Positions 58,944 through 59,363 of a DNA stretch of 64,000 bases are shown one piece after another. Positions within the stretch are counted from its first letter, which is position 1; each line of letters starts with the position of its first letter. The notes below the pieces were generated by a model, which saw only the letters and a program-made list of their open reading frames with translations, made no database searches and had not been told where the DNA came from. The stretch is taken from assembly GCF_003334305.1 (NCBI RefSeq), contig NZ_QOWS01000018.1. One strand, given 5' to 3'. The DNA comes from Escherichia coli (GTDB lineage: Bacteria > Pseudomonadota > Gammaproteobacteria > Enterobacterales > Enterobacteriaceae). The position numbers and the translations under genes are program-made.

Positions 58944-59029
58944 TCATAAGCTAGTCCTTATAATTGTTAATTCTCTGTTAACTTATATATACAATACTAG
59001 CATTTTCAAAGACTAATGTCAAGCATTTT

Positions 59030-59059
59030 TTAACATTTCATTAACATCTGTGGTATAAT
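59030..59059 (+). promoter_or_regulatory. Extended -10 promoter (TGGTATAAT) divergent from the 184-aa operon promoter
   Basis: TGGTATAAT at 59051-59059 with TAACAT 17 bp upstream; back-to-back with minus-strand TTGACA at 59017-59022. Confidence 0.55.
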
Positions 59060-59186
59060 GGTTCTATGGGGAGAGTAAAATATAAAGGCGTGGCTATGAG
59101 GTTTATTCGATAGGGGTTGGTACAAGCCCAACCAACCGAATCAACTATGTATGTCACATGGTATTGCATTGCACACAGGAAATTTA

Positions 59187-59363
59187 ATGGTAAATCTCCC
59201 TCCTGAACTGGGGTCACCTGATGTATGGGCTGGTGGAGGTATCGGGCTGATTGCAGGTCTGTTACTCCGCTACGTCCTTGTCAGAGTGCTTGTTGTGTTC
59301 CGATTGTTCGGTCGTACATGGACGCTTGACCTTAAGGATAATGAGCACACAGAACCCCGTTAA
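59187..59363 (+). CDS. Candidate small membrane protein (58 aa; track ORF starts at 59151)
   Basis: ATG at 59187 after AGGAAA; hydrophobic WAGGGIGLIAGLLLRYVLVRVLVVF. Confidence 0.3.
   Translation: MVNLPPELGSPDVWAGGGIGLIAGLLLRYVLVRVLVVFRLFGRTWTLDLKDNEHTEPR

Follow-up and report, generated by a model that had tools for sequence, protein, structure and literature searches.

The DNA at 58944-59363 of the window (the whole 64,000-nt stretch of Escherichia coli DNA analyzed here) appears, with a probability of about one half, to be a co-regulated operator/promoter hub of a satellite of Felixounavirus, which would be repressed by a protein of the element itself and relieved upon infection by the helper phage. 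The immediate result is more modest. The preliminary description had named divergent promoters, a leader mini-ORF, a hairpin, and a 58-aa ORF, each of which was found in the sequence at the position given for it (Table 1). The promoters and the repeated operator-like sites around them are conserved across relatives, supporting the reading of a real regulatory node, while the mini-ORF and the hairpin, two of these four features, appear to be incidental.

Table 1. Predicted features of the integrated element and of its divergent promoter region
Feature	Position	Strand	Remarks
Whole integrated element	50745..62590		~11.9 kb, between wrbA and ymdF; right end approximate, ~62585-62590
Large serine recombinase	50745-52388	+	547 aa; XisF-like, E 1.4e-17
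Dit-like protein	52385-53194	-	Felixounavirus homology
Tape-measure protein	53330-55498	-	Felixounavirus homology
Second leftward promoter P_L2	57009..57061	-	TTGACA-17-CATAAT with TG, 57037->57009
P_L2 phased hexamers	TGTTAC 57061-57056, TGTTAA 57050-57045, TGTTGA 57039-57034	-	11-bp phase, running into the P_L2 -35
93-aa protein gene	58106..58387	-	Second of leftward operon; candidate regulator
184-aa protein gene	58389..58943	-	First of leftward operon; all-alpha core (predicted)
Left operator-like pair	58965..58981	+	TGTTAA 58965-58970 and 58976-58981, 11-bp phase
Leftward promoter P_L1	58994..59022	-	-35 TTGACA 59022-59017, 17-nt spacer, -10 TAGTAT 58999-58994 with TG before it
P_L1 TG-extended -10	59002-58994	-	TGCTAGTAT; from sequence
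Rightward promoter P_R	59030..59059	+	-35 TTAACA 59030-59035, 18-nt spacer
Right operator-like pair	59030..59046	-	TGTTAA 59046-59041 and 59035-59030, 11-bp phase
P_R extended -10	59051-59059	+	TGGTATAAT, TATAAT core; from sequence
Variable 5' leader of rightward transcript	59066..59186	+	Indel-rich, 64% identity
Conserved leader blocks	59088-59098; 59153-59178	+	GGCGTGGCTAT; GTCACATGGTATTGCATTGCACACAG; from relatives
Mini-ORF MRFIR	59096-59113	+	ATG AGG TTT ATT CGA TAG; from sequence
Leader hairpin	59115-59133	+	GGTTGG 59115-59120 / CCAACC 59128-59133; from sequence
58-aa protein gene	59187..59363	+	One hydrophobic helix; MVNLPPELGSPDVWAGGGIGLIAGLLLRYVLVRVLVVFRLFGRTWTLDLKDNEHTEPR; AGGA ribosome-binding site 8 nt 5' of ATG
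Conserved hairpin past the 58-aa stop	59378..59408	+	CCCCTGTAC / GCATAGGGG, one A-C mismatch in this copy, then TGTCTTT
Non-coding DNA interrupted by methylase cassette	Cassette 59972-60640	-	~1.5 kb
Hin-like small serine recombinase	61542-62093	-	

Promoters, phased repeats, and candidate regulator

Two strong sigma-70-type promoters firing in opposite directions, P_L1 and P_R, are predicted at the center of the region, promoter calls in this study being consensus matches combined with conservation. In the consensus scan, P_L1 scored 10/12 and P_R scored 11/12, both with TG, with predicted starts at ~58987 and ~59066, respectively. The first bases of their -35 boxes are 8 nt apart, leaving 7 nt between the boxes, in agreement with the back-to-back arrangement originally described; such a pair was obtained in 0/1000 shuffles. 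A second leftward promoter, P_L2, scored 11/12 with TG. These three were the best-scoring promoter sites of the 11.9-kb element and the only ones reaching at least 10/12 with a TG extension, compared with a mean of 0.36 such sites per shuffle and at least three in 0.7% of shuffles. Conservation was concentrated on the same elements. Among 13 family members, the 58994-59059 core was 90 to 92% identical, compared with 64% for the leader and 81% for the adjoining coding DNA, and the mean pairwise identity of P_L1 was 90%. The P_R -10 was retained as TGTTACAAT even in L006, a member too divergent for DNA-level alignment, and the P_L2 block was kept in 6/6 long relatives, L006 included, with diverging flanks. 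P_L1 is predicted to head a 184-aa/93-aa/71-aa/HNH/118-aa operon. The unit headed by P_R would comprise the variable leader and the conserved gene for the 58-aa membrane-type protein, up to a conserved hairpin, and P_L2 precedes a 236-aa/71-aa/tape-measure/Dit-like operon.

Phased copies of the hexamer TGTTAA accompany all three promoters. At the divergent pair, the left and right operator-like pairs lie in inverted orientation, forming inverted repeat I3, and bracket P_L1. The left pair occupies ~+6 to +22 relative to the predicted P_L1 start, ahead of the 184-aa ribosome-binding site, and its CTGTTAAC was invariant in 13 relatives. The right pair, which reads TGTTAATGAAATGTTAAAAAATGCTTGACA on the minus strand, overlies the P_R -35 and spacer, abuts the P_L1 -35 from upstream, and was 92% identical across relatives. 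In the window, exact TGTTAA-N5-TGTTAA was found only at 58965 and 59046(-), with one-mismatch copies at P_L2 and upstream of the methylase gene, and the phased hits in the element numbered 5 against 0.22 expected. The repeat layouts upstream of P_L1 and P_L2 are alike, and the layout was kept even in L006 at 43 to 51% identity. In a distant satellite relative (L024), ATGTTAC-N4-ATGTTAC falls within the spacer of the promoter preceding its 184-like gene. As a tracker of the wider 184-like family the motif was rejected: it holds in L024 and fails in the phage-like contigs L030 to L032, which carry more distant 184-like genes and from which the TGTTAA repeats are absent.

The earlier remark that no classical repressor is evident was upheld, with no recognizable repressor domain in the 184-aa and 93-aa proteins (no informative match in Pfam, PHROG, NCBIfam, or PADLOC) or in the 58-aa protein (none in PHROG, NCBIfam, or PADLOC). 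The PHROG, NCBIfam, and Pfam results for the 236-aa protein were likewise uninformative. The 93-aa protein is nevertheless favored as the candidate TGTTAA-binding regulator, with the 184-aa product second, because its conservation matches the invariant operators; among the proteins compared, it was the one that tracked them in this way. It was 92 to 96% identical in 10/12 members (85% in L004 and 51% in L006), including members in which the 184-aa neighbor fell to 64% and the tape-measure protein to 42 to 47%. For the 93-aa protein, putatively the RHH (Arc/MetJ/CopG-type ribbon-helix-helix) protein of the preliminary description, only sub-threshold DndE-like matches were obtained (E 0.006 in NCBIfam and 0.33 in Pfam), the PDB profile search was empty, and the AF2 monomer model contained helices only and was poor, with a pLDDT of 47. 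A homologue search from a divergent copy returned two proteins, and hhalign of the 93-aa family against both the annotated Felixounavirus "transcriptional regulatory protein" and the 184-aa family gave nothing. The 184-aa protein is very variable allelically (64 to 97% identity between close elements), and a length of 183 to 185 aa is held in most of the >1,000 clusters of its family; structurally, its model matched uncharacterized proteins only, and no characterized one.

Relation to Felixounavirus and proposed regulation

The element looks like a satellite, or a satellite-derived island, of virulent Felix-O1-type phages (Felixounavirus), and one that is apparently undescribed, since no description of a Felixounavirus or Ounavirinae satellite was found in the literature. 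It has three general attributes of a satellite, namely, its own integrase with discrete chromosomal sites, the lack of a virion gene set of capsid, terminase, and most tail genes, and genes and DNA matching a helper. The family was found in 421 to 433 of 5,426 complete E. coli genomes (~8%), with insertions at wrbA/ymdF, yecE, and mdtG, next to yciI, and next to a dinB-like gene. A DNA-pattern scan of viral contigs returned only four long contigs (25 to 55 kb). In one relative, L018, the large serine recombinase was seen to contain Resolvase, Recombinase, and Zn_ribbon domains. The Hin-like gene is flanked by inverted repeats, but an invertible segment at this position was rejected, as nine relatives are collinear with the window.

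The Dit-like protein is 72 to 73% identical to its Felixounavirus counterpart and the tape-measure protein 29 to 33% identical over its full length, and the two genes stand in the same order as in Felixounavirus. They are the only recognizable structural genes of the element; its remaining proteins had no helper homologue, and nothing in the element could be recognized as an initiator of replication, a subunit of terminase, or a capsid-size factor. Non-coding patches of the element also match Felixounavirus non-coding DNA, both in the terminal-repeat region and in intergenic DNA, among them a patch of 51 nt that exactly matches a portion of the 628-bp NBEco004 phage terminal repeat. This patch occurs in only ~5/14 family members and only in some Felixounaviruses. 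It was therefore rejected as a conserved packaging signal and taken as evidence of DNA exchange only. The phased hexamer is shared as well. In phage garuso, 12/17 phased-TGTTAA hits (1.8 expected) fall in 49434-49960, within a 1.65-kb gene-free region, and similar clustering was observed in EC106 and NBEco004, the terminal-repeat region of the helper containing ~18 to 20 phased hexamers. No strong promoters were found in the phage region with these arrays.

In the proposed regulation, one element-encoded DNA-binding protein would occupy all of the TGTTAA repeats and hold P_L1, P_R, and P_L2 down in the uninfected cell. If so, P_L1 and P_R would be co-regulated and not alternative, and repression by a product of the P_L1 operon would amount to negative autoregulation of P_L1. 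Helper infection would lift the repression, after which the 58-aa protein may have a membrane role in lysis timing or in exclusion. Because so many phased hexamers lie in the helper's terminal-repeat region, either helper DNA or a helper protein binding these arrays may act as the trigger, through competition. A more specific form, in which the satellite senses helper DNA directly, the arrays in each terminal-repeat region of the incoming and replicating Felixounavirus genome titrating the element repressor and the same protein perhaps coating the helper repeats and so sabotaging packaging or replication, is doubtful; if true, induction and interference would proceed via shared cis-sites and not via a helper-encoded anti-repressor.

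Alternatively, the protein that binds the repeats could be encoded by the helper or the host, or the effect of the repeats could be activation instead of repression. On one such account, the satellite promoters are activated, or freed from silencing, by a Felixounavirus protein that binds the phage arrays and appears after infection, the element sensing this helper protein and making no repressor itself. The clustering of the 11-bp-phased hexamer in the gene-free terminal region of three phages is consistent with this, as are the repeats directly upstream of the -35 of P_L1 and P_L2, a typical activator position, and the lack of any element protein with a recognizable DNA-binding domain. However, all three promoters combine a near-consensus -35 with an extended -10 and should be strong unaided, the repeats take repressor positions at P_R (over its -35 and spacer), at P_L1 (a pair past the start), and in L024 (within the spacer), and the array-bearing phage region is itself devoid of strong promoters. 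Activation by the helper is considered unlikely.

The rightward unit and less probable readings

The candidate membrane protein of the preliminary description is, on the pattern of substitutions, a real gene. The 58-aa ORF showed a median dN/dS of 0.18 with the other frames closed and was kept in all relatives, a 58-aa hydrophobic ORF being found at the same position even in L006; the frame of a longer, 70-aa reading from 59151 was not conserved. The Kyte-Doolittle hydropathy peak was 2.29, at residues 19 to 37. In other genomes the protein is annotated as hypothetical; its 48 clusters are all from E. coli, and no phage homologue was found. Non-coding DNA follows the gene, and a hairpin past the stop codon was conserved in 14 relatives and present in the MFE fold. 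This hairpin is possibly a weak terminator of the rightward transcript, although it was not called by the terminator scan.

With its short hydrophobic product, its strong promoter, and a leader that is long and structured, the unit recalls hok- and tisB-type toxins, and it is retained by itself in truncated copies, L005 among them. It might be a self-contained small-toxin module, of the type I toxin-antitoxin or holin-like kind, that stabilizes the island, its proximity to P_L1 being incidental. Against this, no opposite-strand promoter-like site was detected in 59060-59470, and with 50000-64000 scanned against Rfam (E<=1), the region had no match. A separate search likewise showed no tRNA or tmRNA. 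No PADLOC or NCBIfam family was matched, and the P_R -35 and spacer are made of repeats common to other promoters of the element. A toxin module is judged improbable.

The preliminary description had also likened the layout to a lysis-lysogeny or immunity-type switch. In a lambda- or P22-like bistable switch, antagonistic regulators expressed from the two divergent promoters would choose between a dormant and an active state, and back-to-back promoters with several operator-like repeats do resemble OR/PR/PRM or P22 immI; the multiple operators overlapping divergent promoters that mark lambda-type switches are represented here by the four TGTTAA hexamers, which overlap or flank both promoters. 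No antagonistic regulator pair was found, however, as the rightward transcript would encode only the 58-aa hydrophobic protein, which has no family match, before entering non-coding DNA. The same repeats are on both promoters and on the third one, which argues for co-regulation and against mutual exclusion. Nor is the element a temperate phage; its structural genes have their relatives in strictly virulent phages, and a lytic module is missing from it. This part of the description was not sustained, and a bistable switch has little probability.

It is very improbable that the element is a decayed prophage remnant whose promoter-like sequences have no present function. Only two structural genes are left, and several copies contain IS insertions or truncations, which speaks for decay. 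However, gene order and size (~11 to 12 kb) are uniform over hundreds of genomes and different integration sites, the ORFs are intact, with purifying selection on the 58-aa gene and a stable length of the 184-aa family, and the non-coding control blocks are conserved above their flanks. Felixounaviruses are, moreover, virulent, and lysogeny by them is not known.

The leader of the rightward transcript was described as containing a 5-codon mini-ORF and a GGTTGG/CCAACC hairpin. Both are present in this copy, but neither is conserved: the mini-ORF is gone in 5/13 relatives (L004, L006, L014, L015, and L016), and the hairpin is missing in 7/13, comprising the same five with L011 and L013. Some other members have an unrelated insert of ~100 nt in the leader. 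Hence, both features are best regarded, from this comparison, as incidental and without a conserved role. Attenuation, in which translation of MRFIR and the 6-bp hairpin between P_R and the 58-aa ORF would set read-through into the membrane-protein gene, appears already largely refuted and is the least probable reading, given that the promoter and gene stay where mini-ORF or hairpin is lost, that no T-run follows the hairpin in this copy, so that it is not an intrinsic terminator, and that the leader fold had a z-score of only -1.28.

Significance and comparison with known systems

Very few systems are known in which a satellite exploits a strictly virulent phage, the foremost being PLE/ICP1, and little is settled about how such satellites remain quiescent and detect infection. 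The control region described here is compact and sequence-defined, consisting of three promoters and one repeated hexamer in a widespread E. coli element, and the shared TGTTAA motif provides a directly testable induction hypothesis. Two tail proteins of the element, and several of its non-coding sites, are borrowed from Felix-O1-type phages, a common component of phage-therapy cocktails. Should the element interfere with these phages or ride on them, host range and the outcome of therapy would be affected.

Lambda OR (PR/PRM) and P22 immI (Pant/Pmnt, Arc, Mnt) share with this region back-to-back promoters a few base pairs apart and multiple short operators, and the 11-bp site spacing resembles the two half-sites of the Arc operator. 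They differ in having an antagonistic regulator pair, and the operators here are hexamer direct repeats that are reused at a third promoter. The Stl-Str region of SaPIs and PICIs is similar as a divergent satellite promoter region at which a master regulator enforces silence until relieved by a helper factor. In SaPIs, however, the repressor gene is itself divergently transcribed, whereas the candidate regulator here lies inside the operon that it would repress, and the rightward gene encodes a 58-aa membrane-type protein. The hallmarks of P4-like elements, PICIs, and cfPICIs (tyrosine integrase; Psu, Sid, Delta, and alpha primase; AlpA, Pri-Rep, and TerS; a capsid module) were all absent from the element, among them the tyrosine integrase, AlpA, Pri-Rep, and TerS that separate it from SaPIs and PICIs.

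The nearest published work, by Barth et al. (2023), deals with another family of E. coli islands, in which a tape-measure gene and the gene for one baseplate component are present without the remaining tail genes (PMC10055350). Those islands also have genes for a major capsid protein, a decoration protein, and a RepA_N initiator, have mostly tyrosine integrases next to tRNA genes, and relate to Stephanstirmvirinae (PMC10055350). Tape-measure and baseplate-type genes are likewise found in the present family, which differs in having no capsid, decoration, or RepA_N gene, in its large serine recombinase, and in its relation to Felixounavirus.

In overall design the element is similar to PLE, as a small island with a large serine recombinase, a strictly virulent myovirus as its apparent partner, and helper-like DNA. 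It differs in its host, E. coli, in carrying tape-measure and Dit-like homologues of the presumed helper, and in that no sequence relationship to any characterized protein family, RepA_N-type initiators included, was detected; neither RepA_N nor any other replication domain was detected in any gene of L018. We know of no description of phased TGTTAA operators in PLE. LidI, a small membrane protein of PLE, changes the timing of lysis, and the 58-aa protein is a possible analogue of it.

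Divergent promoters and their surroundings

The region at 58944-59363 lies, according to the annotated neighbourhood, within an insertion between wrbA (50088-50693) and ymdF, and all features listed for it in the preliminary description were found in the sequence at the positions assigned to them. Two TG-extended promoters face away from each other: P_L1, heading the leftward operon of the 184-aa gene, and P_R, heading a leader and a 58-aa ORF. Only one further site of equal quality was present in the whole element, P_L2, which precedes the leftward tape-measure operon. When the 11.9-kb element was shuffled (n = 1,000), a mean of 0.36 sites with at least 10/12 matches plus TG was obtained; three or more such sites occurred in 0.7% of shuffles, and a back-to-back divergent pair in none (0/1,000).

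Thirteen diverse copies of the control region were aligned. Mean pairwise identity was 90% at 58994-59022, 92% at 59030-59046, and 90% at 59047-59059, falling to 81% in neighbouring coding DNA, 73% in the P_L1 5' UTR, and 64% in the rightward leader, which was rich in indels. The control region is a real, conserved, and non-random regulatory node. Two parts of the leader listed in the preliminary description were not conserved. The MRFIR mini-ORF was deleted in L004, L006, L014, L015, and L016, and the GGTTGG/CCAACC hairpin was lost in these five copies and in L011 and L013; the hairpin had no T-run, and the leader folded no better than shuffles (z = -1.28). Both are therefore incidental and not functional features. 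An unrelated insert of ~100 nt was found in the leader of five family members.

The candidate small membrane protein, on the other hand, proved to be encoded by a genuine gene. Its start was placed at 59187, an upstream in-frame ATG at 59151 being rejected because it is not kept in frame. Among 14 copies, the median dN/dS was 0.18 at a mean dS of 0.34, the remaining frames being closed, and the protein reached a Kyte-Doolittle value of 2.29 in one 19-residue window. In the divergent family member L006, DNA-level alignment is no longer obtained here, yet a hydrophobic 58-aa ORF and the same layout are retained. The stop codon is followed by a conserved hairpin and then a T-rich stretch. The protein family was restricted to E. 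coli elements of this type, with no homologue among 50,697 phage records.

Repeats and candidate binding proteins

The inverted repeat I3 consists of four TGTTAA hexamers (58965-70 and 58976-81, +; 59046-41 and 59035-30, -), phased by 11 bp within each pair. Exact TGTTAA-N5-TGTTAA was not found beyond these two pairs in the 64-kb window; one-mismatch copies were grouped at 57034-57061 and upstream of the methylase gene. Of the two exact pairs, the right one spans the P_R -35 and spacer and directly adjoins the P_L1 -35, and the left one occupies about +6 to +22 of P_L1; at P_L2, three repeats extend into the -35. P_L1 (TGTTAATGAAATGTTAAAAAATGCTTGACA, minus strand) and P_L2 (TGTTACCAATCTGTTAAAAAGCTGTTGACA) are identical in architecture, and the P_L2 block was kept in 6/6 long relatives, including L006, amid 480 nt of divergent intergenic DNA. 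Being near consensus, the three promoters should be constitutive; the simplest reading is that a single protein would repress all of them. The control region is best explained as two divergent promoters that share operators and are regulated together, controlling a satellite-like island related to Felixounavirus, with one arm expressing the small membrane protein. On this reading it is not a lambda-type bistable switch. From repeats to a repressor, and from homology with a helper to a satellite life cycle, are both steps that we infer.

On one indirect argument, the 93-aa protein is favoured as the putative TGTTAA binder: like the operators, it keeps a high identity across members (92 to 96%), compared with 64 to 67% at the lowest for the 184-aa protein and 42 to 47% for the tape-measure protein. 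Only sub-threshold, DndE-like matches were obtained for the 93-aa protein, which was labelled RHH in the preliminary description; a PDB sequence search gave no hit, and its AF2 model was poor. The 184-aa protein had no match in Pfam, PHROG, NCBIfam, or PADLOC. In L024, a distant satellite-like relative, two ATGTTAC repeats in 11-bp phase lie within the spacer of the promoter preceding the 184-like gene, and the next gene encodes an unrelated HTH protein. The motif was absent at still more distant 184-like genes in phage-like contigs, where the gene is first after a long non-coding region.

In L030 (4522-5349) and L031 (3104-3742), contigs with terminase and SU10-type portal genes, the 184-like gene stands at or near the operon start after 1.4 to 1.5 kb of gene-free DNA; in L032 (8001-8639), which carries tape-measure and Dit-like genes, it is second after a divergent junction. 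These positions hint at an early-gene role beside genome ends. Among otherwise near-identical elements, the 184-aa protein was hypervariable (64 to 97% identity, >1000 clusters at 90% identity) and the tape-measure protein likewise variable (42 to 90%), whereas the 93-aa, 71-aa, and HNH proteins were 92 to 99% identical in most members, a pattern that would fit an arms race with the helper. A hydrophobic 21-aa mini-ORF (MELVILCFVLIGMIAGASIKV; 57063-57128, -) overlaps the 118-aa gene at its stop codon (TAATG) and ends just before the P_L2 repeats. Hydrophobic ORFs of 21 to 30 aa were kept at this position in L002-L004, L006, and L018, with differing sequence in several.

The island and its non-coding DNA

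About 8% of complete E. coli genomes carry the island (50745-62590, ~11.9 kb), which occupies several sites; the control region was present in 421 to 433 of 5426, with identity from 100% down to ~72%. The chromosome of E. coli strain A7 matched 58389-59800 at 100% identity. Architecture is constant across the family at ~11 to 12 kb, while chromosomal sites and serine recombinases differ. Distant versions (recombinase, 184-like gene, small resolvase, tape measure) are present in other bacteria.

Promoters and genes of the island
Feature	Coordinates	Strand	Remarks
547-aa large serine recombinase	50745-52388	+	left part of insertion
'Baseplate' (Dit-like) protein, 269 aa	52385-53194	-	
Tape-measure protein, 722 aa	53330-55498	-	
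P_L2	57037-57009	-	TG-extended; 11/12
Run of small genes, last two 93-aa and 184-aa	58106-58387; 58389-58943	-	
P_L1	59022-58994	-	TTGACA-17-TAGTAT, TG-extended; consensus scan 10/12
P_R	59030-59059	+	TTAACA-18-TATAAT, TG-extended; consensus scan 11/12
Unannotated DNA, ~1 kb			between 184-aa and methylase genes
DNA methylase gene	59972-60640	-	
Unannotated DNA, 0.9 kb			between methylase and Hin-like recombinase genes
Hin-like recombinase	61542-62093	-	

Several further non-coding features were observed. After about 12 to 13 pentameric nGGTn repeats (61215-61308, +) come a conserved block, TATGGGTGGATTGTCGTAGCCACGTTAAAAATCGAC, and a hairpin plus T-run resembling a terminator (61313-61340); a promoter-like site lies at 61143-61170. 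Family members, as well as two intergenic copies in the Felixounavirus garuso (5652-5740, 4396-4481), retained the periodicity of GGT rather than the letter-for-letter sequence, and the region had no Rfam match. It resembles an array of sites for an oligomeric RNA- or DNA-binding protein, or else a small RNA common to satellite and helper. Inverted-repeat pairs around the Hin-like gene (60854-60874/62421-62441, 21 nt, 90%; 61525-61544/62307-62326, 20 nt, 85%) suggest an invertible segment; nine relatives were collinear with the window here, and only in the divergent L006 does the gene lie on the opposite strand. At 59484-59654, a 95-nt unit is duplicated in tandem (76 nt aligned, 91% identity) and kept in relatives. 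Its ATATATAGAGAAC core recurs, inverted and imperfect, at 59951-59964 and near 62342-62355, an origin or a recombination site being possibilities. The DNA adenine methylase cassette (~59800-60720) is an insertion in the family's non-coding region, missing in L002, L004, L005, L018, and others, and adjoins a repeated TCTTTAGCATTT(T/A)GTGCT module (59401-59430 and 60675-60704).

Relationship to Felixounavirus

By tblastn, the 269-aa protein was ~72 to 73% identical to the product of the Felixounavirus gene directly downstream of the tape-measure gene, and the tape-measure proteins shared 29 to 33% identity over their full length; no further element protein had a homologue in garuso. Non-coding patches of the element also resemble Felixounavirus non-coding DNA: 60804-60861 and 61352-61390 match a 1.65-kb gene-free region of garuso, and 61220-61308 matches a pair of intergenic sites in the garuso early region. 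The 51 nt at 59717-59767 were 100% identical to part of phage NBEco004 and 96% to EC106. The NBEco004 record begins and ends with the same 628 nt, a direct terminal repeat within which the match falls; direct terminal repeats have been reported for Felixounaviruses from PhageTerm results (PMC11737134). The patch was present in only ~5/14 family members, identical in some diverged ones and cleanly missing in others. The patch is evidence that DNA was exchanged, not that a packaging site is established here; its distribution suggests that the exchange was recent or that the patch is a small mobile insertion.

In garuso, 17 TGTTAA-N5-TGTTAA matches (at most 1 mismatch) were found against 1.8 expected genome-wide, 12 of them within 49434-49960, in the gene-free region that is the counterpart of the terminal repeat. 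A single 1-kb bin held 18 hexamers. The same arrays occur in EC106 and NBEco004. No strong promoter was found in the phage array region, and the arrays are therefore not promoter elements there. The hexamer found at the three satellite promoters is thus a cis-acting element at the genome ends of the presumed helper. Two mechanisms are conceivable. The appearance of helper DNA, or of a helper protein binding the arrays, may titrate or displace the putative repressor of the element; in the second, the satellite promoters would be the direct target of a helper protein.

The element contained no hallmark genes of P4-like, PICI, cfPICI, or PLE satellites, and no paper was found describing a Felixounavirus satellite or this island as a satellite. 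The one published E. coli satellite family with tape-measure and baseplate genes (Barth et al. 2023, PMC10055350) differs from the element in the genes it carries, its type of integrase, and the lineage of its helper.
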